In this document: positions 12,370 to 35,230 of the stretch, piece after piece
How positions within the stretch are numbered: position 1 is the stretch's first letter
Layout: each line of letters starts with the position of its first letter
DNA from: Blasia pusilla
Lineage: Eukaryota
Assembly (NCBI GenBank): GCA_050084515.1
Contig: CM114271.1
Span: 44,268,001-44,332,000 of the forward strand
DNA: 64,000 nt
Reading direction: 5' to 3'
Made by a program: the position numbers and the translations under genes
Notes under the pieces: generated by a model
The model's input: only the letters and a program-made list of their open reading frames with translations
What the model was told of the DNA's origin: nothing
The model's database searches: none

Positions 12370-12377
12370 TATAAATA
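12370..12377 (+). promoter_or_regulatory. Putative TATA box of the cargo gene (copy 1)
   Basis: tataaata followed by ctcatttc. Conserved in copy 2 (27112-27119) and lies ~200 bp upstream of the conserved ATG (MTRKK). Confidence 0.55.
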
Positions 12378-12581
12378 GCCGAAATTTTGCTCATTTCCGT
12401 TTTTCATTTCACGAGTTCATGTGCTCTTCCGCGCAGCTGCTGACTAGATACCTAGGGGAGAGAGGAGGGTAAGGGCGCTTCATCACGAAACGATCACGGG
12501 GATTCATCGCGAGACCATTGGAGGGAATTTTTGTGCAGGGAAAGAGACTAGACTGTCGAGGAGGAAACATTGACGGGAACC

Positions 12582-15500: not shown

Positions 15501-17043
15501 GTGTATGATACAGTGGTCGTAGGTAGGGATGACATTCCAAATTTCATGCTTGAAGATTTTTTTTGAAGGAGATGCGGAGGAGCAAGCCCTCGAGACAGCG
15601 GAGTTGGTGTCCAAGGTAGTCACCGCCAAGGACAAATCTACAGCGGGTCTGAAAGGACAAATTGACCATGCTGGGACAAAAACTTCAACGAAATGGGCAC
15701 GCTCCCTAGACGGTCAATGGGGTGGTCGAGGACGTGGCGGTGGATCTCCTCATCGTAGATTTGCCCTCTAGTTTTCACTTGTGGGACAAAAATATGTCTG
15801 GCACTATTCCAAACAGGAATGTCCCTCTTACCTATGACCAGATCACGCTCTTGTTTTCTTTTGCAGACGCTTATCAAAGTGACACAGGTTGTTTCTTGGT
15901 CTTGATTGGAGGGGGCAAGGACAAGCTCTTCAACCTTCAATGCGTGAAGAGGTCGCTGAAGTAGAGGACGGCGCAATCATGGGTCATCAAGAACGAGTAT
16001 CCACTCCGATTGGCGACGAGTCAAGTCTTGGTAAGGGCTCTTAATCCAAATTCAAATCCGTTGGGCTCTGACGGGTTGCATCTGTGCATGCAACCCCTCG
16101 GATCCCAAGAGCTTGTGGCTGCAGTGTTGCAATCCGTCTGAAAGCGACGGGTTGCAAATTTACCACAAGTCTCCATTGAGTGAGTGCAACCTGTTGGAAT
16201 TCAACGAGTTGCAAGTTCTTTTTCTTTTCCTTCTGTTTCTGGAGTGATGCAACCCGTCAGAAAGCAAAGGGTTGCTCTAAGTCAGCAACCTGTCGGCTTC
16301 CGACGGGTTGCTCATCGCAAAAAAAAAACAATTACACTTGTAAAACAACCCGTCGGACTCCGACAGGTTGCTCTACTGTTAGGACTTTAGGTCAAGTTCT
16401 TATGGGTTGGTAATCAACAGGGACTAGAATGCACTATGGACGTATTGCACATTGTGTGGCCATATTGAGAGTAGACCAGCGGTCAAGTAGCTCTTTCTTT
16501 TTGCTGACATTGTTTCCAACATGCTTCTTTACAGATGGACCACTCCTTTGTTTACTGTTTTGTAAGGCCCGAGCACAACTTCCAGGTGTTCCAGATCCTC
16601 GATCCCGTCGATCCATGCTCTGATGGGTACAACTTAGATAGTTTATACAATCCCCCGGAATTTACATGCAAGACGGGACCCCCTTACTTGGAGGAAGGGG
16701 AAAATCCCCTGCCTTGATGCAAACGCTCGTCGAGCTCTGTTCAAGGCCGGGTGACTTGGTCTTCGACTTAGTGGGTCTATCAGGGGCGAGTATCAGAGGC
16801 GTCTGGAAGAGTGGCAAGAACATTATCTGCCTTGAGGGAAGGAAGGAACTTTATGACCTTTGCAAAGAGGCAAAGGGAGATTATGACAGGCTAGTTGGAG
16901 CATAAAACTCTCCTCCAAAGCCGAGAGCTCCGGTTCCAGACCCACCATTGGTAGTGACACCATCGTCACTTCCCACTATTCCAAAAATTGGGAGGGCAAG
17001 GCCGACAGTAATTATGGAAGAGCTCTCGGACGATGACGAGTGA
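12582..17043 (+). pseudogene. Spliced cargo gene: coiled coil + ParB-like motif + beta-class N4C/N6A DNA methyltransferase-like domain (copy 1)
   Basis: FFISDGNQRYRAW (ParB/Srx-type DGxxR), VDLLIVDLP (motif IV position), then KSPALMQTLVELCSRPGDLVFDLVGLSGASIRGVWKSGKNIICLE (motifs X-I-II). GT donors at 13220 and 16031, AG acceptor at 16533-16534. Several stops and frameshifts. Confidence 0.75.
13800..14500. repeat. Intronic cluster of the 27-bp palindrome GCAACCCGTCGGA-N-TCCGACGGGTTGC
   Basis: Example at 14082-14108: gcaactcgtcggactccgacgggttgc. About ten variants in this interval; further clusters at ~16060-16370 and ~17545-17950. Confidence 0.9.
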
Positions 17044-18835
17044 GTTCAAAGAACTAAAGGACCCAGCTTGACTGAAGCGTTTTGGAGTAGGGATTTATTG
17101 GTTACCAAGGACAGAGCACATATTGATACTGGACGGGTGTCGCCTTGCAGAGCGTACAAGATTTACTGTCGAGGAAGGCGGTGGGACTCAAATTAGGTTA
17201 CATGGGACCGTTATGGTGTATCTAGGAGGGGGGAAAGGCTCTCGAATTCCCCAACATTTTTTATCCCCGTCTACAATCGGCCAGAGGAGCCACTTGTATC
17301 CCAAGACATTCCTTTTGTACAGGAACCTAGGAGAGTTAGGAGTAAATTTGTAGATGACAAGGCTGAAGAAATCATAGACTAGATCAAATGTACATTTCTG
17401 AGCTTCCTCGGAAATGTACATTTTTTAATAAAGATGTAATAAAGGATGAGAATTTTTTGATCCATGATGGTGTTTGTAAATTTTTTTTGAATATCTTTTT
17501 TGGTCTTGTCGATTGTGTTGGTCTATCTACTCAGACTGTTTATTTTGCAACCCGTCAGATTCCGACAGGTTGCAACTTCTCACAATATTTTAACCACTTT
17601 CAGGCAACCTGTCGGATTCCGACAGGTTGGCTGCTTGAGTGATTGGACTCTTTCCCTGTTAGTCCAACTTTTGAGGCATTCTGGCGGGCTTCTTCACTTT
17701 TGGCTCGTTTCCATATTATCGTCAAACCACTCGTAGGATTCTTCTCTTCTCTAAGATGTGTTGGATTCCTACTACCTTTTGGATTGCCATTTGGGATTCC
17801 CAACATGTTGGATTCTCATGGGGTGTAGGGCAGAATGGAATCACTTCTCAAAATCCTTCTTTTCTTATGGTAAGCTTGCTTGCAAGGGGTGTAACCCATC
17901 CGATTCTGACAGGTTGCAAGAGTTGCAACCTGTCGAATTCCGACGGGTTGAGAGTAGTACACCTTCTCGGATTCTCAGATTGAGGATCTGAATGAAGGGA
18001 CATGGGTGCGTCAGTTACTCTCTACTCCTAACAGCTAAATGCATTTTGCTTCAATTGTCGTCTCGTCTGATCACGTTTTCTTTTTTGATCAGTTCCTCTT
18101 TACTCCTAACATCTATCAATCTTTTGGTTCAATTGTCGTCTCATATGTTCATATTTCTCAATGGCAGAGAGAATGGTGAAACCAAGTTGTCAAACGCACA
18201 GCAGTCCATGGTATACTTTGTGCACCCATTCAAGAGCCCACATCATCAAATGATGTAATGAAAGTCTAAGGCTACCATGAGTGACAAGTGATTTGTTCTG
18301 TTGTGGAAAACCTCCTTATGGATGAGTATTGATGCCTTCTGCAAGAAGAGTCAACAATCATTTAAAGGCATTTCCTTTTGCCTTTCTTTTGCCCCTTATT
18401 GAGGAGTATTTTATGCCTTTTGCAAGAAGAGATGTCAATCCATAATGTCAACCATATATTCCGAGAAGTTAAACTTTGAATGGCATCGCAGTCTATTGAG
18501 ACCATAGTTAGAGTAGTTAAAAATACCCGTGGGCATAGCTTAGTATAGACTGAGACATGCAATGTGAAGAAACTTAGGCTCACATGGAGAGTGATGGAAG
18601 AATGTTTGTAGTGGTCTTATGATGTCCACTTGTTTTTCGCCCCCTCGAAAAAGGAGGTTACTTTAGGCCCGAATGTGGTCCACCTGCTTCTCTCTTCTAA
18701 AGATTTCTTTTATTTTAAAGCAAATTTTTTTTTCAAATATGTCAAAAAGTTTTGAAGAGAGGATGCAGATTTTGCCCTTTTTTTTTTAAGAGAGACTCAC
18801 CTCTCTTTCTCTCTCCTGCCAGAATACGAGCCCCC

Positions 18836-21800
18836 CACAAACACACACGATCCCATGCTAACTCATGGCATCCATACACACAGGCAAGAAGTACCAAAAT
18901 ATCTTCAATCGCTCCCCTAGCTCGTGGTTAGGTCCTTCTAACTCCAGATAGCCATCTATCCCTACCTACCACGACATACATCTCTAGACGCCTTCCTGTC
19001 TCCATGTCACAAAAAAAGTTGTTAGTTTTTAGTCGCCTTCCTGTCATCCATATCACAAAAAAAGTCAGAATCGAAACCTACCTAGTATCTCTTCTATGTA
19101 TATTTGGGACACATCCATCGTCTTCGAGGAACCCTAGTGAGAGGTGGCGTCAGACATGCCATATGCCAACTAGCATATGGCATGTCTAACTTGAACATCC
19201 ATCATAGACTAGCATCGTGGCCGCACCACGGGCAGAACCACACAACATACAACGCAAGCATGCAAGAACTACTGCTAAGCTCTGATCTACTCTACCATCA
19301 ATGTTAGGAAGGTGAAATCGCGCACAATTATGCACATAATCCCTCCATACCATACCATCGTGTCCCTCCAGCAAGAAAACACTCGATGGCAAAACGTCAC
19401 GCACTCTCAAGATAGTGCGTCCTGCAGTCACATCCAACGTCATCGGTGTCGTCTGTTGCAACTAGACATAATCTCCCTGATGAAACCTCCAAATAGTTGG
19501 TCGATAACCACCACCCCAAATAGTCGCATACCTCAACGTATCCCGATGTTGTGTAATCTCCAAGTTCTCGAACGCCATGGGCATCACTCTCCGAAATAAC
19601 TCAGCCCTCTCAGAACATGCTTGCATCCATACATCTAAGTCATCAAGGTCTAGCACCTCACCAGCATCTTGACGAATGGCCGTAGGTAAATCTCGCTCTC
19701 GGCCATAAAGTAGCAAGTACGGTGAAAAAGACACTAAGGATGCCTGCCTACTGAATCTGTATCCCATCCCCAACCAGGGCAACTGGAGGTCCCAATCTCC
19801 TAGGTGACCTCTCTGCAAGCCATACTTGCGTAAACCCCTCTTCACCGTTTGCACAACTCTCTCCGCTAATCCATCCGTCTCGGGATGATCTCGCGAAGTC
19901 ATGCGGTGGTCGATCAGCGCGTGATCACACAAGGTCTAGAACTCACCGCAAAACTTGGTACCCTGGTCTGTCAACACCTCAACTGATACGCCATAATGAC
20001 TCAACACTCTATCAAGGAAGGCATAAGTTACTCCCTCACTCGCTTTGTCACGCAATGCAACCAACTCAATCCACTTTGAGAACTGCTCGACCATCACCAA
20101 CACATAACGACTGTGACGCTCTATCAAAGGCATAGATCCTGCAAAATCCAAACTCCATCTATATCCTTAGCCCATAATCGGTAATGGATGCAACTGTGGA
20201 GTTGGAGCATTGAACGATGCTCGGACCCGATCACACACCACGCACCTGCCAACAAACTGATGAACGTCAATCTGCATGCCTCGCCACCAATATTGAATCT
20301 GGAGCAAGTTGTACATCCGCTTCATCCCAAAGTGACCCAACTCCTTGTGGGCATGTTGCACTAGTTGTGCTCTCCGTGAAGGATGCGGCACTATGCCTAC
20401 GATGCCATCCTCCCAAACCCTCAAAACATGTGTCCCCTCCCTACGGAACCGTCTAGCCCGCTGTAGGATCCGATCCTGCTCTCTAGCACCCACAGTGCTC
20501 GCAACGTTGCTTGTACGAAAGTACTCCAAGACTTCTCCATCATCATGAATATCTCGGCCACTTGTTGTCTCACTCACTGGCCTCGGGATCCAAGGACTCT
20601 CCACTAGGCCTCGCCATCGAAGTCTCCACACTCTGGTTCTCCATAGCATACATGCCTAAATAGGCTGACGCGTGCCATCATGGCATTGACTCCTCATCAC
20701 TCTCTCAATAGAATTGTCAGGAATGAGAGTTTCCTCTGCATGGACATGTCCCTCAATCAAATCACTAGGCCAAGTGATGGCACTGCTAAATGCTGCTAAG
20801 ATCGCCATCTCTCATGGTCGTTGCTTGATCATTACACGTGTGAATCGAACGGGTAATGAGCTAAGGCGCCCATCACCTGACTCCCATCCTAGTCTGTAGG
20901 ACCTACTTGTAATCTAGGGAAAACCCCATCGGGTATAACACTGCTCCACCAACCAAGACGTCGTAGGACTCTCCATCAGTCACTATCGCCTTGGCTCGCA
21001 CCATGGACTCATCTATAGGGTGTCTCGAGCGAATCCTCACCACGACCTCTTGTCGGGTGATATACTATGTGGTAATCGCTCCACCCAAGGATCTCTCTAT
21101 CCGGAATGGACAACGCTCCACATCGGCTTTCGTCAAGCCCAATCCTCTTAATGACGCTTTCCCCAACATTAGGGGTTGCGCTCCTGAATCCAACAAGACG
21201 AGCTGCGGACTAAAAGCTCTACCTCCGGGATTCACCAACTGGAAGACCTCTCCTTGGTTATCTAGCAATACAACACCAGGAGAAGCCATGGCACGCTCTA
21301 TCTCGGGTCTAGCGGGCATCTCCGCCATCCTAGGAGCCGCAGCCTGCCATGAACCTCACGTGGACGGCCCGAGCATCCGCTTCAAGGGCCGGTCCATCAC
21401 CTCCTCTCTAGTCACCTATGAACGTGATGCAAGAACTCCAACTCCACGTTCACATAGTGTAGCGGCCAGCCAAAATCCTTGGCGAGCGTACCCCCCAACG
21501 TCATAACATCGAAAGCAGAAGGGACGTGGTATACAATGGTGGCCGCCCCCAACAACGTGCTCGACACATGCCCCTCTTGAGCATCAACAATAGGAGTCAT
21601 TGCACTCGCCTCTCCCATCACCCTCTGTGCCTCCACACCAACAACATCACCAACTCTCAAGGAACTCTGATAAGGACCCATCGATGGAGTCCTCATCGCC
21701 TCAGACAACGTGAAAGATTGAGGAAGCCTAGTCTGTTTCCTGGCTTTCCCTCGCTATGGATCCAACTTTGCGGCTGCTCCACACATCACAATTGTGGCTG

Positions 21801-21836
21801 CCTCCATTTGGGCAACCCCGCATATCCAACCAGGAT
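18836..21836 (-). mobile_element. Gypsy-type DNMT retroelement copy 2, internally deleted
   Basis: Protease (VLLDSGAQPL) joins directly to the pre-integrase linker at ~20707. Integrase (DFAG, TDQG, DGLAERVVQ) and a decayed PHD remain; MTase, RT and RNase H are absent. Confidence 0.9.
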
Positions 21837-22246
21837 GAGGTGCGGTAAGAGGAGAGGAAGAGAGGAAGAGAGGAGAGAGGAGAGAGGAGAGAGGAAACTA
21901 CCTTCAACCGAAATAGATACTTTTTTTTGAAGAGAGTTTCCGTTGGGTTGAAGAGAGGAAACTTTTTGTGTGAATTTTTTTGCACTTTTTTGTTCATTTA
22001 TTAAACAATCCCACAGTTTTTTGTTCCTCTTCCATATTTTGGCAACCCCTTTGAGTCCGACGAGTTGCAAATTGCACAAAATTTACAAAACTGAGAAATC
22101 AGTGGAATCATAAGTGTGGAATCAATCACTTTTTCCATCCAAGGTCTGGAAAAAATCTATCATTTGCCCCGGGCTGAATAGAGTTCAAGCTCACAGTGAA
22201 GGTTGAGAAAAAATAAAAGTACAATCTTAAACTTCATTTTGCATCC

Positions 22247-25200
22247 TCAAAGTGGTTTGTTTAAAATACTTCGAACTTCTTTGAGGGACAGAATTGGTTG
22301 GTGGATTCCTACTCCTACCTCCGACTCTCTTAAAACTACCAGCAACACATAGTACATGTGCTTACAAGGGAAATACCTTTTGCCACTTGTCTCTCTTTGG
22401 ACAAAGTCATCACATGAACATGCGGGAAAGCAACAGATGTGCACCACATACACCCCTATGACACTTGAATTTACAGTGTTGTTCCTGACCCAATACATCC
22501 TTCCTATTCCATTGCCACTCATGACATCTTTCGTGGCGATGATCTCCATTTTTGCCTCCCGAGCTGCTACAATTCGTTTTGCTCTCTCCACCGTTGGCCT
22601 ACACATTCTGTTTCTCTTCACCCCATTTCTAGACTCAAACAAAAATAATGGATTGAGATCATCCACCTTCTCCGGGTACATTTTGACATCAATCTTGGGT
22701 TGAATACGAAAATGCGAAGGTCTCTGTAATGCTGAACATGCTCCAAACTTCCCCGTCTCACGAGTCTGAAAGCGGCACTTGTAAGATTGTCCACCGTCTT
22801 GAGTGCGATTCGTACTGCGGCGATGGGGCCAAATCGTGGGGGTATTCTCGGGAGCTCCAATGGCAGCCGGATAAGACTTCGGAAAGCGCAAGATTCATTT
22901 GGGCAGAAGAAGTACTTCAATTGATCCCGGTCCTCGTGAAACGATCAAAGGTTTTGAGTCCCCAAAACCAGGCAAAGTGGTCGTCGGTCCTTATGCATTC
23001 TTATTTAGGAAAGTGCCGCATGCTCTCCTAATGCCATCGATTCGCCTGCGCAGTGGGTCCACGTCCTGGGTTGCTCCAAGATATATGCCATCGTTTTAGG
23101 TTGCAATCCACCTCCATTACCGGAATCCCATATTGTTGAACCACCCCAGTGACAGGATGTTGCGAACTTCCAGCAACGGAGGGCTTTTGAAATAAAACAT
23201 TCACTGATTTTGGAGAAGTAACTCCATCACGGATTTGGGACGGGTCCGGGGTCCCCGAATACCTGGGCGGTGTAATTTCCTCATCCAAATCAATCACCGG
23301 ATTTGTTCCTCGATGCTGCCTCTTCACCTGCCTGAAGTCAAGATACTTATCTGGTCTCCACGAATCTCGTTCGGACTGCTCTACCACCATCTGTATGGGA
23401 CGTCTTGAAACCCGCCCACGAATATCCCCACCTATGTGTACGTCTTGCTCGAGTGGAGTTCCAGCTACGCACCGGTTGAAGGCTTCGACATACAATTTTT
23501 CATCACCAGATCTCACAGCCGCCCTAACATAGAGCTCGTAGATCGACGGCCCTTTTCCTTTTGTTATGCCTTTTGTGAGGAAGATATGGGATGATTCAGA
23601 CTGTAGCATTGCTCTTGCCTGATCTTGTTGGCATGCCTCCACAAGTGAAATTCGTTGGCATGCTTGTGACGACCTCGAAGAGGAATGAACACTTTCTGCT
23701 CCACTTGTGTTAAAGGAGGGCATTTTCATGAACGTTCAATCCTGCAACGACGGCAATGTTAGAAGGGAACGAAAATAACCAGAGTCAAAGAAATAAGCGA
23801 CCTGTCGGAACCAGACGGGTTGTAGGCCCGAGGCATCCCATGAACGACTCTGCGACCCGTCGGGTCTCGACGTGTTGTAACCTTAAACCCACCTACTGCA
23901 ACCCGTCGGAACCTGACGGGTTGCAAGGCCAAGGCATCCCATGAACGACTCCGTGACCCGTCAGGTCCCGAATGGTTGCACACTCGGGACGACACCAAAC
24001 ATCAGGATGCAACCCATCGGTTTCCGTCGGGTTTTTCGGTTTCGTCGAGTTGTTCGGCAACCCGTCGGTTTCCGTCGGGTTGCACACTCGGGCAACCCGT
24101 CGCATCCGACAGCTTGCTTGGTTTCTTGGGTTTGAAATCCATATAATTCCCACGCTTCTCACTATGAGCTACAACTTTACAAACAATTCTCAGCGTGAGC
24201 TTGACAAGACAAAATAGTGAACTCACCTGCCGCATGAAGTTTCCCCATTGTCTCATATGTACAGTCCACCAACTCAACCAAGAGCACAACTCTTTGTACT
24301 TCCCCTCAATAGCATGCTTCCTCCACCACCCATGAAGTTCTTCCTGGCAGTCCATGGCCTGCTTCAAGGTTTTGCTGTCCTTGCAACGTTGGAGTAGAGT
24401 GACATGCTCTGTCCTCTTATTCTCCTTGATGCAAGATTTGGTGTACCGGGTCACAGACTGTTGTCAATGGAAAGCATCCGACCTTTCCCTCTCCGGTTGA
24501 ACCTCTCCATCCCAGAACACTTCCCGGATAGCAATCCACTCAGTTTGTGCATTGTCTGCGATGAACCCATAAATTTATGGAGGTGGCCTTTTGTTTTCCT
24601 TCACCACTTCCAATAAGAGTAACCAGCACATCTTCAAACTGCCAACGTCTTCTGCCTTTACTTCACACACAAATATAGTTTTGAGTCCCTTCTCCACATG
24701 GTCATAAACGTGAGCACCCATCGTCAACCATCCGTTCAGCACTCTGTAGCAAATATCAAAGCTGACCCAGCTCACGTAAAGATCTTCCCCTTCCCTCATT
24801 CGATCTATAAGATCGAGGCCACTCGAGGGACCTATGGTTGACATTTTGAAGACATAGGCCCTGGATCCCTTGCCTCCTTGGCCCATGAACTGCCATCTCT
24901 GAATGAATGGAAATCTGGAGTTGGCCTTGATTCTGGCGATGGCATCCATTTCGGCCGTCTTTCCATCTAGAACTCGTATCTGACGCAGCAAATTCCGGAA
25001 GCATTCAGGATCAGCGAGAAATGCGAGATTTTCCCAGAGTTGTTTCTCCTCAACCGCCGTGATCTCGCCCTATCCAGGGATTCCAAGCAATTTTTCACAA
25101 TTTTGTGATGCCGTTGTGAGCTTGATCACCCCGGGCTTTGAACCCGGAGAGTTTCTGAAGACCTCGGCTACTTTCTTCGCCACATCCTCCTTGATGTGTT

Positions 25201-26236
25201 TTTGAATTGCATCGGTCACAGGATGAGTGTGGGAGCCAACATGAATTGCCAGCCTTGTATACTCTGACGTGGAGCCCAAGTCTTGGACAATGAAAAATAT
25301 GTATGCAGGACACGCTCCAACGCAGAAGGGCGATGCCTGACAATGAAGACATCGATGGCCTCCCGGCGGTATTGTGGCACCCACCTCGTATGGAGTTTCT
25401 GCATTCTTGGGGGGGAATTGCGACGTATTGACTCGCCCGTTGCGCTCTAGATACGGGCATGCTGGACTTCTATACTCCAAGGCTCCCACGCATTGGCCGC
25501 GGGAGACAATCCAAGGACCATATGGGATGGAAGCACTGGTCCGTTGAAGCCTGCACCATCGATGACAATCAGACTTTCTGTCCATACCCTTCAGGCATCC
25601 TCCATCCTTCTTTTGAGCAGGAGCAGCAAGTGGAGGCAACTCAAAAATGCAATTACCATCGTACATGGCGGCGGCTAAATGTCGACAAGAATATGCTTGA
25701 ACATTTTCAAGGGCGAGACGAAAGCAAACTATTGCCCGATACTCGCAAGAGGAACAGTAGGCGGACCACAGGGCCGACCGGTGTCGACAGATCCGGCCGA
25801 GGTTGATAACATCCGAATCTCTTCATGAAGAACAACATTGTTACGAGTGTGCGGTTGGAGTCGGCCGGATCTGCGGCAGAGCTTGGAGTTGCAAACGAGA
25901 GCTCGGAGCACTAGGAAATTCTAGACCGTCTACTTGGGAAACGGACGAATTCGAAGGCGGGCCGTAAACTCTGTATTGACCATTTGCGCGGGTAGGAGAT
26001 TCCATACTTTACGGTGCGAGGTCTTTGGCTGGACGTCTCACCTATTATGTCTTCCGTACCTTCCACCTAACATCTTTGGATACAAAGATGGTTCCAATTT
26101 GAAGAAGAAATCGAAGCAGGACATAAAATTTTCATCCCCTTTGCTTTTAAAGACTCACGAGCTTGGGGTCGAATGATTTTTGATTGAGGAAGGGCCGCGG
26201 ATGATCGCCACAAGTGAGCTTAACATAATTATCCAT
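22247..26236 (-). pseudogene. MULE-family DDE transposase with N-terminal GCM/WRKY-like Zn domain and C-terminal SWIM finger
   Basis: Zn domain (CLHCQ..CPAYIF..IHVGSHTHP), first Asp WVSFDI..TMGAHVYD, second Asp GFIADNAQ with ERSDAFH (C/DxxH signature, read manually at ~24580-24465), Glu in SGAESVH, SWIM CSCDDF..CKH. GT-AG intron at 24226-23742. Start at 26236 is inferred. Confidence 0.85.
23790..24115. repeat. 27-bp palindrome cluster inside the transposase intron
   Basis: Several gcaacccgtcgg-N-ccgacgggttgc variants lie between the splice sites at 24226 and 23742. Confidence 0.85.
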
Positions 26237-26291
26237 TCCAAGAAGATTCCTACGGGAGGAGCGAGAATGAGAATGAGAATGAGAATATTTA

Positions 26292-27119
26292 ATTTATAGT
26301 GAATAGGAAACAGATACTCGATGATTTTTACCGACAAGATGAATTCGGTGGGGAGATTGTCGACACAATGGATCCAATTCAGAACACATTCAATTGTGTT
26401 GCAATATGTTACCGGATTTGGGGGAAGAGGGTCGCGCGCATCACTTGGAACCGTCGGAGTCCTGGTAACTCGAAATTACCGAAGCTTACGAAGCCGCAAC
26501 CCGTCGGCATCGGACGGGTTGCACGCTTCGCTAAACATTGTCGGCGAGCAACCCGTCACTCTCCGACGAATTGTTGGGATACCGCTCCTTCTTGCTCGAA
26601 GATGCCGGAGGCGTGCAAACCGTGTGTTCCCGACAAGTTCCGCGGGTGCCTTGCCTTTGAGCCCAAAGACGGCGAGGCGTGCAACCCGTCGCCGTCAATG
26701 GGTTGCGCATGGCGTCGCCGCTTGTGGTGTAGCGGCCGGACTCCGACGACTTGCACGGGAAGCCATCGTTCCTAACCCTTGATGAGGGAAGCGTGCAACC
26801 CAACAGTCTCCGAAGGATTGCCCAAAATACGTCTCGTTCCCGTCCCAAACACGGCGGAGGCGCGCAACATGTCGGTCTTCGACGGCTTGCGCGGGTACCT
26901 CGCGTTGTTTTCCGAAGACGACGGAGGCGCTCAACCCGTCGGTCTCCGACGGGTTGCTTGCGCACGTGGCGACGTTCGCAGGATGGCGGAGCTACGCAAC
27001 TTGTCGGACTCTGACGAGTTGCAATTTTTCACGTTCGGAATTCCGTAACATTCGGCACGTCGCCGTCGAAAGGACGACGGGATCCATCGGTCAGCCCAAC
27101 GGCTAGAAAAGTATAAATA
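26292..27119. promoter_or_regulatory. Putative bidirectional promoter region (TATA on - at ~26292-26298, TATA on + at 27112-27119) containing palindrome copies
   Basis: The two genes are head-to-head, with tataaat upstream of each inferred start. About 8 palindrome variants lie at 26496-27022. Confidence 0.5.
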
Positions 27120-28589
27120 GGGCAGAAGTCGCTCATTTCCGGTTTCTCATTTCACGATCTTCATTCCTCACTCCTCACTCTCCCGCGCAGGAGCTGATCA
27201 GATACGAAGGGGCATTTCACGCGGCGACACATCGCGAGTCGATAGGAGGGAACGAGAGCGAGACGGTTCGACGGAGCGATATCGGGACGATTCGAGCTAA
27301 CCATCAAGGCGAGACGAGCTCCCATCTCGACATCAGCAAGGCGACTGATCAAGGGATTCGTCGTGGACATAGGCGGAGGCATTTCTGGCAAAAATGACGA
27401 GGAAAAAACAAAGCCAACAAGTCCGGGAGCTTCACTCCCAACTCCATTAGGACTCATGCGTCAGCTTCTCCTGCGCCTCGTTTGGCGAATGAAATTATGC
27501 AGTAGGAAATCGAGGAGCGGGAAAGGGAAGCGGAGATGCACAACCAAGTGCTTCTGGCGAGACGTGTTCAAGCGGCGCTAGATAAACAGAACGAAGAGGC
27601 CGAGACGTCGCAGGCCTTGAAGAAAAGGATCGCCGATGAAAAGAGAGAAAAGAAGCGTCTAGACGCGTCAGTGAGTAGGGCGGAATTGGCTAAAGCGAGG
27701 CGGGAAAAAGCGATAGCCATTGACGATAGCCCTGCCCGTCCAACCGCAAGTGTTGAGATGCGGGAAATGTCCCCCACGAAGTCCGGGGACACAATCAACA
27801 TAGTGGAAACAACACCAGTTCAAATCGATGACGACAAGGTCATGAGGACCGCCAGCGTGGAGATGGTGGACATGGCGGAAGAAGCCGGAGAGCGGTCATT
27901 CTCGACTCCAAGCCCGGCGGAGGACATCGACCTCTATCGGATCGAGGAGTTCCTGGATCGATTTGCCCCTGTCTCGGACAAGTTAGTGGTCAAGAAACCG
28001 ACTCCATTTTCGAAAGCGGTAAGAGAGGTTTAGGTTTTTTAATTATGTGAATTGCAATTCATTGGGATCTCGGTGTAGCTTATTCCTCTTGTCCTTTCGA
28101 CGGTGGTAAAGCCGATGGCACTCATGGAGGGCCCAACGCCCGAGGATTCCACTCTGCCGATTAAGGACAATGGAATACGTCCGCGAAATAAAATCCGACG
28201 AGGACATCGCAAAGCTAAAACAATCGGCGGTGACATCATCCTCGTGGGACAGTTTTCCTCCCTTCTATGTTCAGCCTTACGACGAGCATGGAACCCGAGC
28301 TCAGTTACCGAGGAGGACTTGGAAAATCTCGACACATTCGGAGGATGCGAGACCAGGACTTTGAAGGCAAGTTGAGGGCACGGAATTCAGCTGGATGAGA
28401 AATCTGCATTTCTTCATTTGGGATGGAAATCACAGGTTCATGGCGTGGACCAAGTTTGGGGAGGAGCGCCCCAACTCATTGGAGGCACAATTATGCGTGA
28501 AGGCAGTGGTCCTTCACCCATACCCTCATCACATGGCGACGGTGGAGATGGCAATGCATGCCATGAACACGTAAGTATCTTTAACACTT

Positions 28590-29250
28590 TCGCAACTCGT
28601 CGGACTCCGACGAGTTGCTCGATTGATGAATGGGTTAGGTTTGTTTAGGCAGAAAGCAACTCGTCGGACTCCGACGGGTTGCTAGACTGCACGGTTTTCC
28701 GGATGTTTTTTTAAGATTGACACTCGTCGGACTCTGACGACTTGTTTGATTGAACATAGATTTAACTAGTTTTTGGCCCAAAGCAAACTGTCGGAGTCCG
28801 ACGGGTTGCTCGATAGGCCGCCTTGTGAGGTTGTTTTTTTAAGAAGATTGCAACTCGTCGGACTCCGACGACTTGTATGATTGAACATAGATTTAACTAG
28901 TTGCTGGCCCAAAGCAAGCCGTCGGAGTCCGACGGGTTGCTTTGGGGCAAAAACCTTCTAAACATGTAGTCACTCGAGCAACTTGTCGGAGTCCGACGAG
29001 TTGCATTCTTAAAAAAACAACCTCACAAGGTGGCCTATCGAGCAACCCGTTGGACTCCGACGGTTTGCTTTGGGCAGCAACAACTAGTTAAATCTATGTT
29101 CAATCATACAAGTCGTCGGAGTCCGGCGAGTTGCAATCTTAAAAAACATCCGAAAAAGCGTCGATCCAACAACCCGTCGGAGTCCGACGAGTTGCTTACC
29201 TGGCATTAGCAAATCTGAATGCAACCCGTCAGACTCCGACGGGTTGCGTC
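28590..29250. repeat. Intronic palindrome array forming a long fold-back
   Basis: About 12 palindrome copies. Spacers are also inverted duplicates: 28802-28840 vs 29011-29049, and 28860-28902 vs ~29083-29125. Confidence 0.9.
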
Positions 29251-31429
29251 ATTTAGCTTGTTGCTAGAATCCGACCCTGAAGCATGGCGACCGTCGAGTC
29301 CGGCGGGTTTGCGAGGAACCCATGTAATTTCGACGGGTTGAGTTTGGATGTGCGAGATTGTATCGGAGGGAATGTCACCCACCATTGGATCGGATGCGAT
29401 CGGGTGAGGAAGGTGCTTACGACGCACCCGTGAGAGTACAGGGGGTTCTTGGGCGATGCCCTCGTCAATAAGATGCTTGCAAAGGGTGCTCAGATTAAGA
29501 AGAAAACTTGGGCAAACAAGTCTATTTCTCAAGATGCAGCCGTAACCATCCTTTGGTGGTCGAAGATACAGGCCGTGAAGAAAAGCGCCGACCGAGTGGA
29601 GCGGAGGGAGAAGGTATCTCGCCTCAGAGCGCCAAATTCATCAAGCTCCAGATCTCTGCAACGAAATACACGGCGAGCAAGATGCAGCGATACATCAACA
29701 TTCTCAACCCCGAACTTGGTCCGAAGTTCTACCAGGAGCTCAAGGCGATTATCAAGCATCAGCGGAAGAGGGATGAAGATCCGCATGGTCGGATTGGGGA
29801 GAAGTGTGTCGGATCGCGTGCATCGTTTTGCGTTATCCGGGATTAGCGAGTTCAGGAGGATACGATCGATGAAAATCGATCTCGAGGGCTTAGAGGCCCG
29901 GAAGAGGGCGGCACACCATCCTCGGGTGTGTCCGATCCGATGATCTCGCATTGGCTACGCGAATGGGCATTATGGGACGCGTTGCGGGTAATCGGGAAGT
30001 CCGTGCTGGACGGTCTGCAAGCGGAGCTCAGAAGATTAGAGCCCATTCCGCCAGAAGCAAACCTTGAAAGTTCTGGAGATTACGAGGTTTGGCTCGACGA
30101 CATCCGGGACAAGCCAACCAAGAACCCTCGATTCAAGACCATGTTCAAGGTTTGCGTCCTCCCTCGTGAGCTTGACGAAGAAGTAGAGGGTAACAAACGG
30201 GATCAAGCGAAGAAGAAGCGAGATCTGACAGAAGCAGACGGCCGATAATGTTCGACTAAAAGCGCCCAACGGATGGTATTCGGTACCTCGTCGGTGTAAG
30301 AACGCAGTGCGTGGGGAAAATTACCGGTAGCCTTGAAATTGTGGGCTTTACCGCCGGATGCAGAGACATTCTCCATGTACGACGTGGAGATGGGTCAGCA
30401 CATGTCGGATTGGAAGGTGGAGAATTGCCCCATTTGGCTCGACTTCAAGCGACCACTGAAGACATCACGGATAAGGACTTACGAGTGCTTCATGATGCAG
30501 TGGCCTTAGGACAAGACGACATCCCCAATTTTGTCGGCTGAAGACTTCTTCGGAGGAGATGCGAGAAGAGCAAGCCCACGAGACAGTTGAGTTGGCTTCC
30601 AAGGTCCGGACAGACCAAAGACAAATCCACAAATGGGTCTCTAAGGCAAGCGAGGAAGGGAAAAATTCAGAGGCCGAGACTTCCCAAAGAGAGCCTGAAG
30701 ATGAGAGGCCGGAGAGGCGGAATCGTCCGGACGAGCAGGAGAGAGGGTCGGACTAGGTCTCGGCCAAGAAAACGCCACGAATCCGAGGTCATAGAAACCC
30801 GACAAGCCGTCCCGGACTAGGGAGAAGCGGAAGCGAGAGGTGCCGGGTTGTCCCAAGGAGAATACAGACCCATCATCCTTGGGAAGACACAGACAAACAA
30901 CGACCGGACAAGCGTCCTCCTTGATTCACCTCTTTCTTGGATGAGTGAACGGCTTGATTCTCAAGCGTCAGCGCCATCGAAAAAATTGACAACGCTGGGA
31001 CGGAAGCTCCAACGAAATGGGCACGCTGCCTGGGCGGTGAATGGAGTGGTGGAAGAGGTTGCGGTGGATCTCTTGATCGCCGATCTGCCCCTGGTGGTTG
31101 CGACTTTGGGGCGAAAATCCGGCGGACGAGGTACCTGAGTGGAATGCCGCTCACTTATGACCGATTGCACTTTTGTTCTCCTTTGCGACGCCTATCGAGT
31201 GGCAGGGTCGCTTCTTGGTGTTGATTTGGAGGGAGCGAGGACGAGCTCTTCAACCTCCGGTCGTCAAGAGGTCGCTAAAGTGGAGGACGGCACAATCATG
31301 GATCATAAAAACGAGTACCCACTCCGATCCGCAACGAAGTCGATTTGGGTAAGGCTCAATTCTGTACAATAATTTCAATTATCTTATAATGATGTGTAGA
31401 ATGAGAGTCGATGCCTGGGTTTTTTCCGC

Positions 31430-31795
31430 GAGCAACCCGTCGGAAGGCGACGGGTTCTTGGCTTAGAGCAGCCCATGCTCGGCTGAGAGCAACCCGTCGG
31501 TTTCCGACGGGTTGCATCTTTCCCACATACACAGGGAAAACCGCGGTGTACTTGCAACGGTTCCGGCGGGTTGCGGTTGATTTTGGTTTTGGATGCAACC
31601 CGTCTAATAGCGGCGGGTTGCTATCGACGGTTGCTCAGGCGAGCATGGGCTGGTCTGAGGCAAAGCAACCCGTCGCCTTCCGACGGGTTGCATCCGAAAA
31701 CCAAAATCAACTTGGAAAACCCAAAAGCAACTGCAATCCGTCGGGTTCCGACAGGTGGGTCTGGGACAAAACAACCCGTCTGACTCCGACATGTT
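31430..31795. repeat. 27-bp palindrome cluster in the last intron of the cargo gene
   Basis: About 7 variants between the GT donor at 31349 and the exon resuming at ~31871. Confidence 0.85.
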
Positions 31796-34255
31796 GATCC
31801 AAAGTCAGTTATTGAAAATCTTCTCAAGGCGACTTCTTTAGTTTCTGACATTGTTTCGTCTTTGATTCTGGATGGACCACTCCTACGTGTACTGCTTCGT
31901 TCGGCCCGAGCACAATTTCCAAGTGTTCAAGATCTAGGATCCTTTGGATCCATGCTCAGATAGGTACAGCTTAGATAGTTTGTACAATTCCCCCCCGGGA
32001 ATTTACATGCAAGACAGTACCCCGCTTCTGGGAGGAAGGGAAAAGTCGCCAGCCTTGATGCAAACGCTCATCGAGCTCTGCTCAAGGCCGGGTGACTTGG
32101 TGTTCGACTTAGTGGTCCTTTCAGGGGCGAGTATCGAGGCGCTGGCGAGTGGCAGGAACATTCTCGCCTCGAGGAAGGCAGAAGCTGTTTGACCTTTGCA
32201 AGGAGGCAAAGCGTAGAATCTGAAAGGCTCGTTGGGGCGTACAACTCTCCCACGGCCGAGAGCTCGGTTCGAGCCACCCTTGGTAGTGACTCCATCGTCA
32301 CTTCCAACGATTCCCAAAATCGGGAGGGCAAGGCCGAAAGTGATTTTGCAAGAGCTCTCAGACGATGACGAGTGAGTTCAAAGAACTCAAGGACCCAGCT
32401 TGACTGCAGCGTTTGGAGTAGGGAGTTTTTTGATAATTTGGCAAAAGATTTCATAGAATAGATCAAATGTACAGTTCCGAGCTTTTTTCGGATGATATAA
32501 AGCAGAAGATTTTTTCGATCGATGGTGGTGCTTGTAAATGTTTGGTGATCATTTTGTCTTTTCGAATGTGATCGTCTATGTACTCCACGGTCTTCTACTT
32601 TGCAACCCGTCAGATTTCTCCTGCTTGCAATTTTCACTTTATGACCATTGCAACCCGTCGGATTTCTCCTCCTTGCAACTTTTTGCTTTTGACCATGGAC
32701 CCTTTTACCACCTCCAGGTAACGTGTCGATTCCGACAGGTTGCACGATCGGACCCTTTCGGATCGGCGATCTGGCGGGCTTCTTCCTGGCACCCTCCCCT
32801 CAACTCGTAAAAAGGCGGCGTGGCGTCTTTTCTTCTCTCTCAGGCGTGTTGGATTCCTTCTACCTGTGCGGTTGCCATAGTGGTATTACCGGGGACGGAG
32901 GAGATATTGATACTGGATGGGTGTCACATTGCAGAGCGTACAAGGTATACTGCCGAGGAAGGCGGTGGGACTCGAGAAAGGTTACTTGGGACCGTTATGG
33001 TGTACCTAGGGGGGGCCAAGGCTCTCGAATTCGCCAACATTTTCGATCCCCGTCTACAACCGGCCAGAGGAGCCACTTGAATCCCAGGACATTCCTTTGG
33101 TACTGTCACCGAGGAGAGTTAGGAGTAAATTTGTAGATGACGAGGCTGAAGAAATCATAGACTAGGTTCAATGTACATTTCGGAGGTTCCTTAGGAGGTA
33201 ATAAAGGACGAGATTTTTTGAACCCATAATGGTGTTTGTAAAAGTTTTCTGGAATATGTTTTGGGACTTGTGGAGATGGTGCAAGAGAAAGGCCTAGGAG
33301 CAGGTTGTCCAAGAACAAGTCAAGAAGATTGTACAAGGTGATAATGCAGCCAAGTCACTCCATTGACCTCAAGCCTAGAGGAGACAAGGGAGATGGTGTA
33401 GGCACTAGGGAGTCTCAGGGTATCCAATGAAGGAGATAGAGTGCTTGATTCTTTGTTGTAGAGGAGGGTTTGAACCAAGGGGTGGATCTGATTGTTAGGG
33501 CCAAGAAATGAAGAATAAGGGGCTAAGAAGAGGTCAATGGAGGCTGAGCTCAAATGCTTGGACTCTTGTGGGCTAGAAGATTCCTCATGGAAGCCTAGAG
33601 GACCTCATTTGAAGGCCATAAAGCTTGAGAATCCAAGGGAGAGATCTATGGAGTTGAGAGGATCAAGGAGTGATTTTTGGAAGATTTGTGCGAGGTGGAG
33701 CTAAGTGGAGGTGTGAAGGCGAGGGCGGGGCTCGAAACAGATTGAGAAGAAGCAAGCATGGGAAGAATATAGAGGTAGATCTCACCTTCAAGCATGTCCA
33801 AGAGACAGTCGAGCCTATGCCATCAATGTTGCTCAAGAGGCTTTAGTTAGGGCAGGTTGAAGTAGATGAGGTAGAAATTTGGTCAAGTAGATGCCTTGGA
33901 GTAGATGATTAGGGTTGGCATCCGGGTGGTCCTCCAACAAAAATACCAAGGGCACTGCTTTTTGTTGACCGAGATGAGGAGATGTTAAGAAACTTAGGCT
34001 CACATGGAGAGTGATGGAAAAATGTTTGTAGTGGTCTTATGATGTCTACTTTTTTTTCGCCCCAAGGAAAAAGGAGGTTTTTTTAGGGCCAAATGTGGAC
34101 CACAACCTACTCTCTTCTAAAGATTTAATGGATTTGAAAGCAAACAGAAATTTCAAATATGTCATAAAGTTTTGAAGAGAGGAGGCGGATTTGGCCCTTT
34201 TTTTTTGAAGAGAGACTCTCCTCTCTTACTCTCTCCTGCCAGAATACCAGCCCCC

Positions 34256-35230
34256 GACGATGGATGTGTCCCAGATGTACATAGAGTAGGTAGTTCTTCA
34301 TTCTAACTTGTATCTTTGACATGGATGACAAGAAGGCAACTTACGATGGGGCCATATGAGCACCTGGCCTTCTTGCTCTTAACGTCGAGAGATGTATCTC
34401 ATAGTAGGTAGGGATAGATGGCTATCTGGAGTTGGAGGGACCTAACCACTAGCTAGGGGGGCGATTGGAGATATTTTGGTACTTCTTGTCTCGTTGTTTG
34501 GATGCCATGAGTTAGCATGGGATCGTGCGTGTTTGTGTGTGTGTTCGGTGACAACGATGTATGTTGTGTAGCGATGTGAATGCGCACGAAGATTTTCACG
34601 TCTTTTAGGATATATCGGTGAGATCTAGTAGAGCGCCTTCGTGAGAAGTGGTGGACAGGCTCAGTTGGTCGAGGATGACCTGCTAAGGCCCCGGAAGCCT
34701 CAGCAGGTCATCGTTTCGGCTCATTTGGAGCCATATTTAGGAACTTAATATTTTAGATAAGTATCATTTTGAGTATATGATCCACTTTCTATTTTTGGTA
34801 AATGATCCTTGACCTTCTACATCAGGTCAAGAGCCAAAGAGGTGACTTGGGAGCATAGGTTACCATGGAGAGAGCTTGGGAGAGGGGAGGGGTCCCAAGC
34901 TCAAGGAGAGAGAGCTTGAGAGCTCATTCTCTCTTTGTTGAACCTCTTGGCATGAGGCGGCAGAGCTATGGTCTTGCTTGTCTTGTGTGTGTAATCCAAT
35001 CCTCTCATTAGGAGAGTGGGTTTGGGTTTGACATTGAGAGACACATGTGAGAATGCACACATGTGAGAACTATAGTGTTGTGAGAGAGATTTGATCTTTT
35101 TTATTGGAGATATTCTGGTAATTCTTGTCTCGTTCTTTGGATGCCATGAGTTAGCATCGCATCATGCGTGTTTGTGTGTGTGTTCGATGACAGCGATGTA
35201 TGTTGTGTAGCGATGTGTATGCGCACGACA
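34256..35230 (+). mobile_element. Gypsy-type DNMT retroelement copy 3 (end of PHD, 3' UTR and B1-A2-B2 end)
   Basis: RWMCPRCT-stop, purine tract aggggggcg, B1 34464-34591, A ~34594-35102, B2 35103-35230 ending ...cgaCA. Confidence 0.9.

Follow-up and report, generated by a model that had tools for sequence, protein, structure and literature searches.

Two decayed copies of a putative DNA transposon in the 64-kb stretch of the Blasia pusilla genome analysed here (the window) carry arrays of a 27-bp palindrome, GCAACCCGTCGGA-N-TCCGACGGGTTGC, in their non-coding DNA. We regard these palindromes as candidate binding or loading sites for an element-encoded protein acting on its own DNA, a plausible reading to which the sequence features lead us to assign a probability of roughly 0.45. 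ParB-like and methylase accessory genes in algal transposons, inverted-repeat arrays beside a ParB-like gene and the motif arrays of VANC are already in print.

Twenty-three full 27-mers with at most three mismatches were found in the window, between positions 14017 and 31691 (mean of 100 shuffles, 0.00), along with 59 matches to the 12-mer half-site with at most one mismatch, against 0.10 expected and a shuffle maximum of 2. Looser thresholds returned 43 (at most five mismatches) and 56 (at most seven) loose full sites, and 96 half-sites with at most two mismatches, every one of them in the 1-kb bins 12001-32001. None of these 96 fell in the remaining 44.7 kb of the window, where the DNA is mostly non-coding and rich in transposable elements; the initial annotation had described the motif as essentially absent outside this element family, and within these 64 kb it is.

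Copy 2 of the element (21837-34258, bounds approximate) comprises a putative transposase gene on the reverse strand and a cargo gene on the forward strand. Its left bound is the end of LTR retrotransposon homology (20698-21836 matches 50927-52075) and its right bound the end of homology to copy 1 (33939-34258 matches 18519-18838), where an inverted LTR starts (34256-35230 matches 46439-45457); the ends share a single inverted match, 19 bp long and GA-rich (21859-21877 versus 34216-34234). Copy 1 (12005-18838) holds the cargo gene only, without the transposase, and its left side adjoins a truncated LTR retrotransposon (8963-12005 matches 45457-48486). Identity between the copies is 77-88% over 12559-13771, 14535-15656, 15659-16036, 16495-17099, 17102-17512 and 18519-18838. 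The same retrotransposon fragment precedes each of them (9662-11508 matches 18836-20709), and they may be one segmental duplication and not two independent insertions. The putative transposase and the cargo gene of each copy are interrupted by in-frame stops or frameshifts; there is therefore no active system here, and both copies in the window are pseudogenes that cannot work now.

All the clusters that make up the dozens of palindromes first reported, those of copy 2 and those of copy 1, are present, and one additional, lone palindrome with four mismatches (22042-22068) lies 3' of the transposase gene, towards the left end of copy 2. Within copy 2, an array of six loose full sites and nine half-sites separates two ORF blocks of the transposase gene in a putative intron (23797-24103), for which a GTGAGT following the end of the ORF at about 24222 on the reverse strand reads as the putative donor. 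A second array (26496-27022), partly made of a 67-bp tandem unit common to copy 1 (repeat family D1), lies between the divergent transposase and cargo genes in a candidate bidirectional promoter. Further arrays occupy cargo intron 1 (28592-29341; 12 loose full sites spaced mostly 61-67 bp apart) and cargo intron 3 (31432-31797; six loose sites, flanked by segments collinear with the liverwort protein P0028), and a half-site trio (32602-32743) is found downstream of the cargo coding region in a 455-bp insertion not shared by copy 1. In copy 1, the cluster originally placed at about 12005-12350 is present at 12052-12278 in degenerate form, as the upstream 67-bp tandem repeat of 12008-12278, whose unit consists of a degenerate palindrome and a 40-nt conserved spacer and occurs four times in this copy and three times in copy 2. 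It is followed by arrays in cargo intron 1 (13808-14490; nine loose full sites and 15 half-sites, with putative splice sites read from the sequence as GT 13766-13767 and AG 14537-14538), in intron 3 (16053-16371; seven loose sites) and in 3' non-coding DNA (17547-17951; four loose sites). We infer that the cargo arrays are intronic because the segments on either side of them are collinear with a full-length protein homologue.

The proposed avoidance of exons was confirmed in that no site overlapped a block conserved between the copies or an ORF block (0/23, 0/43 and 0/56 at the three thresholds). Such blocks amount to 56.6% of the sequence attributed to both copies (19,256 bp) and are partly defined by what aligns between copy 1 and copy 2, and the sites are not independent because they cluster into about nine arrays. 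The observed/expected CpG ratio is 1.13 in arrays versus 0.79 in blocks.

Information content ranges from 0.9 to 2.0 bits at all 26 specified positions, columns picked by the motif search itself, and falls to about 0-0.3 bits at flanking positions; what is repeated is therefore the palindrome and not a longer sequence. Array positions are equivalent in copy 1 and copy 2 although the spacers do not align, as expected from the earlier remark that the motif is retained while the intron sequence around it differs. Sites are spaced at a median of 63.5 bp, and 19 of the 44 intervals measure 60-69 bp. A C6>T variant found in the intron-1 arrays of both copies (4/15 and 8/19 half-sites) is missing from the intron-3 arrays (0/10 and 0/10), the 3' arrays (0/7 and 0/3) and the transposase-intron array (0/9); the arrays are therefore older than the split of the copies. 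Sites diverge from the consensus at a mean of 3.2 of 26 positions (about 12%), which is close to neutral decay given the 77-88% identity of the copies themselves, so selection need not be invoked for the motif to be retained today. The 13 bp uniformly conserved in each half-site exceed the contacts of a typical dimeric reader, which counts against the binding-site reading.

It is also conceivable, if somewhat unlikely, that the palindromes have no protein reader and represent a structure-prone minisatellite growing by slippage and hairpin-templated inverted duplication wherever this is tolerated, namely outside exons, with at most an RNA role in which transcribed arrays form long hairpins leading to small-RNA silencing of the element. 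The intron-1 array of copy 2 contains a near-perfect foldback of about 600 bp (28592-29197, centre near 28927; inverted arms of 63-110 nt, 74-97% complementarity), and the RNA fold of 28580-29260 reaches -470 kcal/mol (z -42.8); other arrays also fold better than shuffles (z -9.2 and -11.5), and individual sites give DNA hairpins at -12.8 to -16.8 kcal/mol. The central base alternates between GACTC (14) and GAGTC (8), a flip expected of inverted duplication, and the site divergence noted above is compatible with this explanation. However, the large foldback is present in just one of about nine arrays, and a simple minisatellite would retain a single unit, whereas here one 27-bp core recurs among unrelated spacers in at least five separate compartments, with conservation stopping precisely at the palindrome edges. 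The arms differ by 110 one-sided changes against nine symmetric ones, and symmetric changes are not in excess (the observed value is reached in 774 of 2000 shuffles made within arrays), so the hairpin is not being preserved; nothing points to selection for it, and the independent divergence of the arms fits two half-sites each matched to the consensus. A tiny mobile palindrome is disfavoured by the finding that none of the 43 sites is flanked by a direct repeat of at least 4 bp indicative of target-site duplication.

A further candidate reader, which we consider improbable, is the transposase, whose N-terminal zinc-chelating region could bind the palindromes as sub-terminal or internal repeats regulating transcription and transposition. 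The putative gene (22247-25822, reverse strand) is decayed into ORF blocks 25822-25070, 25069-24575, 24463-24002, 23735-23028 and 22894-22247, the first two parted by one in-frame stop. Its first ORF contains a C..C...H.H pattern (our own reading, with no family match) that we take to be typical of Mutator/FAR1-type DNA-binding domains. One of the arrays sits inside an intron of this gene and another in the upstream region that it shares with the cargo gene; a Mutator transposase is reported in a 2026 preprint to activate transcription of cognate copies in a sequence-specific manner (10.64898/2026.08.24.746577). Against this, the arrays are kept in copy 1, which lacks the transposase gene (copy 1 may be a deletion derivative), and the identity of the transposase is itself unproven. 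Of the 56 loose sites, 38 are located in intron 1 or 3 of the cargo gene or in 3' non-coding DNA, far from the element ends, at which transposases usually act. The assignment of the element to the MULEs in the initial annotation is not established: a Pfam search of the putative transposase returned no MULE, FAR1 or transposase match, homologue searches found none, and the one family resemblance, a CxCx(n)CxH SWIM-like motif, fell below the cut-off (Pfam SWIM, E 0.088). It is very improbable that the motif is instead a repeat dispersed throughout the genome, or a site for a host factor, that gathers in non-coding, transposon-rich DNA and has no particular tie to the element, in view of its absence from just such DNA elsewhere in the window and, as weak evidence, of the lack of a match to a near-perfect 27-mer in one JGI metagenome scan.

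The binder favoured under the binding-site reading is the product of the cargo gene, a pseudogene in copy 2 (27371-32201, forward strand) with a ParB/Srx-like N-domain, a helical middle and a methylase-like C-terminus. Its relatives, including the 1207-aa P0028, map collinearly on both copies; tblastn with P0028 matched copy 2 at 28140-28568 (E 1e-10), 29688-30443 and 31878-32201, where several in-frame stops and changes of frame break up the alignment, and the ParB/Srx-like segment of copy 1 at 13320-13760 (forward strand, E 3e-15), whose motif SDGNQR has the counterpart WDGNHR in copy 2 (28140-28568). A phmmer search returned 25 relatives at E<=1e-3, two of which were rejected as spurious TPR proteins, leaving 23 credible ones; the closest of those with a name come from liverworts (30-35% identity), and 28 of 30 ESM Atlas matches were ParB_N-type clusters. 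When the AlphaFold model of the relative P0008 (pLDDT 92) was compared with 48,161 chains by VIA-align, 13 of the 14 matches at Z>=2 belonged to the ParB/Srx superfamily, the best including KorB (Z 8.0, a range in which, by the tool's own warning, a common arrangement can score), PadC (6.9), sulfiredoxin (6.3) and pNOB8 ParB-N. The top Foldseek rows were likewise ParB, Srx and Noc (best E 0.04, all E >0.001). Judged on this relative, the N-domain of the cargo family is predicted to adopt the ParB/Srx fold, and the ParB-like part to be an NTP-binding-type ParB/Srx domain, not a parS-reading helix-turn-helix. In canonical ParB, parS is read by a separate helix-turn-helix; profile searches against PDB sequences found no DNA-binding domain in the cargo, and the helical middle region of about 500 residues (model pLDDT 50) matched no family. 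The cargo family has DGNHR where ParB would have its CTP-binding motif GERRxR.

The motif IV position in copy 1 (15740-15772, forward strand) reads VDLLIVDLPSS, which aligns with ADCLYLDLPTG of liverwort P0029 (BLASTP E 0.002) and has DLPS in place of DPPY, the motif IV expected of the PF01555-type methylase class. The motif I region of the same copy (16663-16920, forward strand; GDLVFDLVGLSGAS; tblastn P0028 E 2e-6) matched Pfam N6_N4_Mtase at E 3.4e-4 and 21.1 bits (cut-off 26.7), and the copy-2 cargo did so at E 0.0027; PF01555 matches in four cargo-family sequences scored 18.1-24.8 bits, all below the gathering score of 26.7. PHROG DNA methyltransferase families also matched this region (copy 1, E 9e-5) as well as copy 2. 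By sequence, the cargo C-terminus resembles PF01555 DNA methylases, but with DLP[ST] at motif IV. Overall, the interpretation in the initial annotation is partly supported.

Systems combining similar parts have been described in algae, our comparison group being Ectocarpus Sola1-1_Ec32, the PAG2 and PAG3 proteins of red-algal Plavaka, Mutator and Zisupton elements, and chlorophyte ParB-HTH Dam-type methylases. According to the available text, the Ectocarpus Sola1 element encodes a 1104-aa protein with ParB-like and N4C/N6A-methylase parts, its gene and that of the transposase lying on opposite strands (PMC12477816), and in red-algal Plavaka elements tandem inverted-repeat arrays adjoin PAG3, a ParB-like gene, for which self-binding was proposed (bioRxiv 10.1101/2025.02.11.637652). 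The cargo likewise would be a long protein with a ParB-like N-terminus and a PF01555-type region, encoded opposite the putative transposase; sequence-level ParB likeness is weak in both cases (algal HHpred 7BNR_B, e 0.29), and 7bnr_B is also in the Foldseek list of P0008. Unlike in red algae, where a ParB-like part is joined to a 2OG oxygenase and a PF01555 methylase to SET in separate genes, both parts are fused in the cargo, and the arrays are found not only beside a gene but also in introns of both genes, in intergenic DNA and in the 3' region. The cargo differs from the algal methylases in its motif IV, and its host lies outside those algal groups, the proteins being likened by description; the main text of the Ectocarpus paper nowhere contains the string "palindrom".

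A parallel for the arrays themselves is the VANC analogy drawn earlier, which fits the available description of VANDAL21, where VANC21 binds motifs that form tandem repeats in introns, between genes and in non-coding DNA at the termini (Hosaka et al. 2017, PMC5735166). As in VANDAL21 and VANDAL6, a family-specific short motif is concentrated in such DNA of its own copies; VANDAL arrays are also described there as tandem repeats with fast turnover whose motif variants mark sub-groups, much as C6>T marks the intron-1 arrays here. VANC has a non-palindromic motif of 9 bp that is repeated in one orientation, whereas the present one is a 27-bp palindrome with direct and inverted duplication, and the accessory protein, ParB/Srx- and methylase-like, is set beside VANC by analogy. 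Binding and hypomethylation were demonstrated experimentally for VANC (PMC5735166), whereas the palindromes described here are candidate sites.

Reminiscent of ParB-parS, KorB-OB and Noc-NBS are the ParB/Srx-fold N-domain and the palindromic, clustered candidate sites. The 27-bp site is longer than parS-type sites (14-16 bp) and unrelated to them in sequence, the cargo departs from ParB in its DGNHR motif and the helix-turn-helix not found, and no segregation role is expected in a eukaryotic transposon. The order of a ParB-like N-terminus, then motif IV before motif I, and the PHROG matches recall phage and plasmid ParB-methyltransferase fusions (beta-class N6A/N4C, PF01555), from which the cargo differs in its helical middle, non-canonical catalytic tetrapeptide, introns and eukaryotic transposon setting. 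Eukaryotic methylases were derived from phage ParB-linked loci in the available account of Iyer et al. (PMC4738411).

Taken together, the palindrome may be a family-specific cis-element of a DNA transposon carrying an accessory ParB/Srx-like and DNA-methylase-like gene opposite its putative transposase gene. During the family's active phase, tandem and inverted duplication would have amplified it into arrays about 64 bp (some six helical turns) apart, filling all non-coding compartments: the left end, the transposase intron, the DNA between the divergent genes, introns 1 and 3 of the cargo gene and the 3' non-coding DNA. Protein binding, the identity of the binder and the downstream effects are all things we infer: the palindrome would serve as a two-fold symmetric site bound or loaded by an element-encoded protein, preferably the accessory protein supplied by intact copies elsewhere or in the past. 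Such binding would alter the chromatin, methylation or transcription of the element, as VANC does on VANDAL21 and as proposed for the algal ParB-like proteins.

The 27-mer GCAACCCGTCGGA-N-TCCGACGGGTTGC matches 23 times in the whole window at up to three mismatches and not once in 100 dinucleotide-preserving shuffles, and its 12-base half-site is found 59 times at up to one mismatch where 0.10 matches are expected, so that the palindromes described in the initial annotation are real and far above chance. Every cluster named there is present, together with a further site at 22042-22068, and the number of non-overlapping full sites is 43 at up to five mismatches and 56 at up to seven. Information content ranges from 0.9 to 2.0 bits at all 26 specified positions, whose columns were chosen by the search, and from about 0 to 0.3 bits in the flanks just outside, which were not; because it drops immediately beyond the 26 positions, the recurring unit across arrays is the palindrome itself. 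Within an individual array, longer units, 64-67 or about 130 bp in length, can also repeat; neighbouring sites are spaced by a median of 63.5 bp, and 19 of the 44 intervals measure 60-69 bp. Two host transcription-factor sites that resemble the palindrome, auxin-response TGTCGG and DRE CCGAC, were rejected as explanations on the grounds that spacing and flanking bases do not match.

Two diverged copies of the cargo (accessory) gene, at 12005-18838 and about 26300-34258, share five collinear blocks of 77-88% identity, and palindrome arrays fill exactly the gaps separating these blocks. As had been proposed, the palindromes avoid the inferred exons: conserved or ORF blocks make up 56.6% of the two copies and are overlapped by 0 of the 56 loose sites, which fall into about nine arrays and thus provide an effective sample of nine, not 56. 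Also borne out is the claim that the motif is kept while the intron sequence around it differs, the 27-bp core being common to arrays whose spacers turn over. Ahead of the cargo gene in copy 2 lies a divergent, multi-exon set of ORFs on the minus strand (22247-25822), a putative transposase gene; one array sits between two ORFs of this set, and the upstream array of copy 2 occupies the region shared by the divergent transposase and cargo genes.

Searched in full with HMMER, the 111-aa ORF at 13431-13766 matched 25 proteins at E ≤ 1e-3, two of which are spurious TPR proteins. All named phmmer relatives come from one liverwort, Riccia sorocarpa, in which they are annotated as hypothetical proteins and have many paralogues on several chromosomes. 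One of these relatives, P0028, is a full-length liverwort form of 1207 aa that is collinear with both cargo copies in tblastn alignments covering the N-domain (13320-13760, E 3e-15; 28140-28568, E 1e-10), the middle region (14695-15458; 29688-30443) and the C-terminus (16663-16920; 31878-32201). P0028 segments map collinearly on either side of the arrays at 13808-14490/28592-29341 and 16053-16371/31432-31797, from which we infer an intronic position for these arrays. The same alignments reveal in-frame stops and frame changes in copy 1 and copy 2, which makes both cargo copies pseudogenes. The 183-aa cargo exon found no homologue in a word-indexed search, and none of 124 pattern matches in a search for related DNA loci with the single sequence P0030 was confirmed. 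Our best, still tentative, reading (probability of about 0.45) is self-recognition by the element: one of the proteins that it encodes, most probably the ParB/Srx-methylase-like accessory protein, would bind or load at the palindrome, a site of two-fold symmetry repeated about every six helical turns, and would thereby alter chromatin, methylation or transcription of the element.

The arrays themselves grow by direct and inverted duplication. At 28592-29197, in the intron-1 array of copy 2, lies a near-perfect foldback of about 600 bp centred on one palindrome, with a predicted RNA minimum free energy of -470 kcal/mol (z -42.8); the RNA folds of other arrays are far less extreme (z -9.2 and -11.5). 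This foldback is, from the folding prediction, a likely hotspot for hairpin RNA or cruciform formation, and it is here that a structure-driven minisatellite, with or without small RNAs from hairpins, has to be weighed as an explanation of the arrays. Arm changes at 43 sites, however, are one-sided in 110 cases and symmetric in only 9, and this symmetric count was equalled in 774 of 2000 within-array shuffles. There is no excess of compensated changes, so a maintained hairpin is rejected: the palindrome arms change independently and nothing maintains the hairpin, and we hold the minisatellite explanation to be unlikely. A tiny MITE made of a back-to-back pair of 13-bp terminal repeats is likewise rejected, since flanking direct repeats of at least 4 bp are present at 0 of 43 sites, making a tiny mobile palindrome unlikely.

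Departures from the half-site consensus number 110, of which 74 are transitions; most of these transitions are C>T or G>A at CCCG and CG positions, the pattern expected if cytosines deaminate in a methylated repeat. The C6>T variant is carried by 4 of 15 half-sites in the intron-1 array of copy 1, 8 of 19 in that of copy 2 and 3 of 10 in the upstream array of copy 2, and by none in the intron-3 arrays (0/10, 0/10), the 3' arrays (0/7, 0/3) or the transposase-intron array (0/9). This distribution indicates that the arrays were already at their present positions before the copies split, each evolving in concert while its spacers turned over. On average, sites diverge from the consensus by about 12%, as neutral decay would predict for copies 77-88% identical, so that selection cannot be read from their present retention. 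What does speak for function is the family-level pattern: one sharp 27-bp core in every non-coding compartment, with unrelated spacers.

The proposed protein partner has an N-domain with the family pattern IPLCR..VRP..GY..FYV..D.G..WD..W..F..DGNHR..AW..HPRV..AMH..N. Pfam matched the N-domain ORF of the window to DUF1015 alone (E 0.005), and neither phmmer nor profile searches of PDB sequences returned anything relevant to a ParB assignment. The ESM Atlas placed 28 of the 30 nearest named clusters in the ParB_N type. The fold evidence comes not from the window's own decayed copy but from P0008, a relative to which the window ORF aligns and whose AlphaFold model, built from 17 aligned sequences, has a pLDDT of 92. 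Foldseek with this model gave ParB-CDP, sulfiredoxin, Noc and KorB as top rows, at E 0.04 or weaker and none at or below 0.001. An exhaustive VIA-align comparison over 48,161 chains yielded 14 with Z of at least 2, 13 of them members of the ParB/Srx superfamily, the best being KorB (Z 8.0, rmsd 2.6 over 95 residues), PadC (6.9) and Arabidopsis sulfiredoxin (6.3). On the basis of this model we accept a ParB/Srx fold for the cargo-family N-domain. The fold is an NTP-binding/nuclease-type domain, and canonical ParB reads parS by a separate helix-turn-helix. Profiles A1 and A3, compared with PDB sequences, gave nothing relevant to a helix-turn-helix, so that no DNA-binding domain was identified in the helical middle region, and the AlphaFold model of the region following the N-domain is unusable (mean pLDDT 50). 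The arginine-rich CTP-binding motif of the ParB N-domain is GERRxR; unlike canonical ParB-parS systems, the cargo family has D-G-N-H-R at this place, with D and N invariant and G, H and R conserved in at least 90% of the aligned sequences. No ParA-type ATPase was matched by Pfam among the window ORFs scanned.

At the C-terminus, PF01555 (N6_N4_Mtase) matches the motif I region in four sequences, all below the gathering score of 26.7 bits: the window copies (21.1 and 18.1 bits), P0028 (23.7) and a second Riccia relative, P0029 (24.8). PHROG DNA-methyltransferase families are matched as well. The catalytic motif (motif IV) of beta-class N6A/N4C methylases is DPPY; at the corresponding position (15740-15772) the window has DLPS, and P0028 and P0029 have DLPT. 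That DLPS/DLPT is kept from window to liverwort suggests a catalytic site that is diverged or inactive, and the methylase-like domain may be inactive or may work on another substrate. Some of the liverwort paralogues bear the automatic UniRef name 'Trimethylguanosine synthase'. The five central bases of the palindrome are GANTC in 15 of the 23 best sites, 23 of the 43 and 25 of the 56, most commonly GACTC and GAGTC. CcrM/HinfI-type N6-adenine methylases of the beta class, which belong to the same Pfam family, recognise GANTC; the occurrence of GANTC at palindrome centres may be a coincidence.

The putative transposase would be the other element-encoded candidate to bind the palindromes. Its gene contains an in-frame stop, and ORF 22247-22894 carries a SWIM-like C-S-C-x14-C-K-H motif that Pfam scores at 12.8 bits (E 0.088) against a SWIM cut-off of 19.6. 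The initial annotation's label of 'MULE' derives from this sub-threshold match and from ORF patterns that look Mutator-like by eye, and family and homologue searches lend it no support. No MULE/MuDR-type DDE domain was matched by Pfam at E up to 10 in five ORF blocks, decayed fragments for which sensitivity is lower, and word-indexed searches with two transposase ORFs returned no homologues, which is weak evidence. The ESM Atlas related a transposase ORF to AEP-primase clusters with a recognition of 1847, under the 2300 mark. A GA-rich stretch of 19 bp gives the strongest terminal inverted match (score 33 versus a shuffle maximum of 28), and no target-site duplication was identified at the element ends, the flanks of which are rearranged retrotransposon pieces. 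We thus describe the gene as a putative transposase and leave its superfamily unspecified. Binding of the palindromes by this protein, whose ORFs enclose one of the arrays, seems to us decidedly unlikely.

The remainder of the window is a nest of eukaryotic transposable elements. One is an LTR retrotransposon (about 45457-55722) whose minus strand encodes RNase H and integrase domains and, in the ORF at 49775-50614, a C-5 cytosine DNA methylase domain (PF00145, E 6.6e-12, which passes the cut-off). Its family is also represented by fragments at 8963-12005 and 18836-21836, the latter without the DNMT part (reference-copy positions 48003 to 50927 are missing). DNMTs borne by retrotransposons have been reported for charophytes and dinoflagellates (PMC5890265). 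The same retrotransposon fragment precedes each cargo copy (9662-11508 matches 18836-20709 at 88%) and the same 320-bp segment follows each (18519-18838 matches 33939-34258). The two copies may have originated by segmental duplication instead of two transpositions, the layout 9662-18838/18836-34258 having the appearance of a tandem duplication that was followed by deletions. Identity is uneven, 77-78% in the 5' cargo blocks versus 85-88% in the flanks, and this roughly twofold greater divergence counts against a simple duplication. Elsewhere, a plus-strand hAT-like transposase ORF set is split by stops (3455-5449; DUF4371, E 6e-7, below cut-off), and a PIF1-like helicase fragment on the minus strand (41636-42187; E 3e-4, below cut-off), whose ORF contains a 69-bp tandem duplication (41975-42113), may be a Helitron remnant. 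Two unrelated tandem repeats have a 234-bp unit (2177-2649; 2.0 copies, 93% identity) and the 20-bp unit GACGGTTGACCGTTGACGGT (54564-54626; 3.2 copies), the second close to the retrotransposon end. Within this 64-kb setting the palindromes are confined to the element copies, as originally suggested: all 96 half-sites at up to two mismatches fall within 12001-33000 and none in the remaining 44.7 kb or so. A scan of JGI metagenome contigs with the near-perfect 27-mer found no stretch, and we consider a motif spread genome-wide and unconnected with the element very unlikely.

The cognate protein-site system originally put forward is partly supported: the sharp non-coding motif and the ParB/Srx-fold cargo family stand in its favor, whereas both local copies are pseudogenes. 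A more specific form of the self-recognition reading, very unlikely when taken as a whole, would make the accessory protein a eukaryotic transposon-borne ParB-type clamp fused to a DNA-modifying module that marks the element as 'self'. A dimer would load on the 27-bp palindromes, phased at about six helical turns; nucleotide binding by the ParB/Srx domain would drive spreading over the element; a base modification, written or blocked, would provide the 'self' mark and a shield from host 5mC/small-RNA silencing; and, with GANTC at its center, each palindrome would have a site for adenine methylation on its dyad.

Hosaka et al. 2017 (PMC5735166) show that VANC21 binds a 9-bp motif that forms tandem arrays in the non-coding parts of VANDAL21 (introns, intergenic and terminal regions), and the layout of a family-specific motif is the same here. 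In red algae, a Bostrychia genome preprint (bioRxiv 10.1101/2025.02.11.637652) reports the accessory genes PAG2 (PF01555 + SET) and PAG3 (ParB-like + 2OG oxygenase) from Plavaka, Mutator and Zisupton elements. A paper on Ectocarpus transposable elements describes a Sola1 element that encodes, opposite its transposase, a 1104-aa ParB-like + N4C/N6A-methylase protein, and considers such proteins a possible new accessory class binding and modifying its own transposon (PMC12477816); Iyer et al. describe Dam-type methylases fused to ParB-HTH in chlorophytes and chytrids (PMC4738411). Compared by description, the algal accessory proteins share a ParB-like N-terminus with the cargo family (fold of P0008); they have a PF01555 methylase where the family here has a motif I match below cut-off and DLP[ST] at motif IV, and the arrangement opposite a transposase in Ectocarpus may have its counterpart in the divergent putative transposase ORF set with the SWIM-like motif.

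Both the cargo class and the hypothesis of self-binding have thus been published already; our search of the published literature found nothing on such accessory genes in liverworts or other plants. In the window itself both copies are dead, and the sequence pattern, though strong, makes the palindromes candidate binding sites. What is new is a sharply defined 27-bp candidate site with a VANC-like spread through introns and promoter, together with its candidate partner, a protein in which ParB/Srx and methylase-like parts are fused and which has its nearest named relatives in a liverwort. If the palindromes are cognate sites, this site and a protein with full-length liverwort relatives would make a testable pair for the idea that transposon-carried proteins bind and epigenetically modify their own DNA, which has so far been demonstrated for Arabidopsis VANC only and proposed for algal elements, and, if true, the accessory-gene class would extend into the plant lineage.
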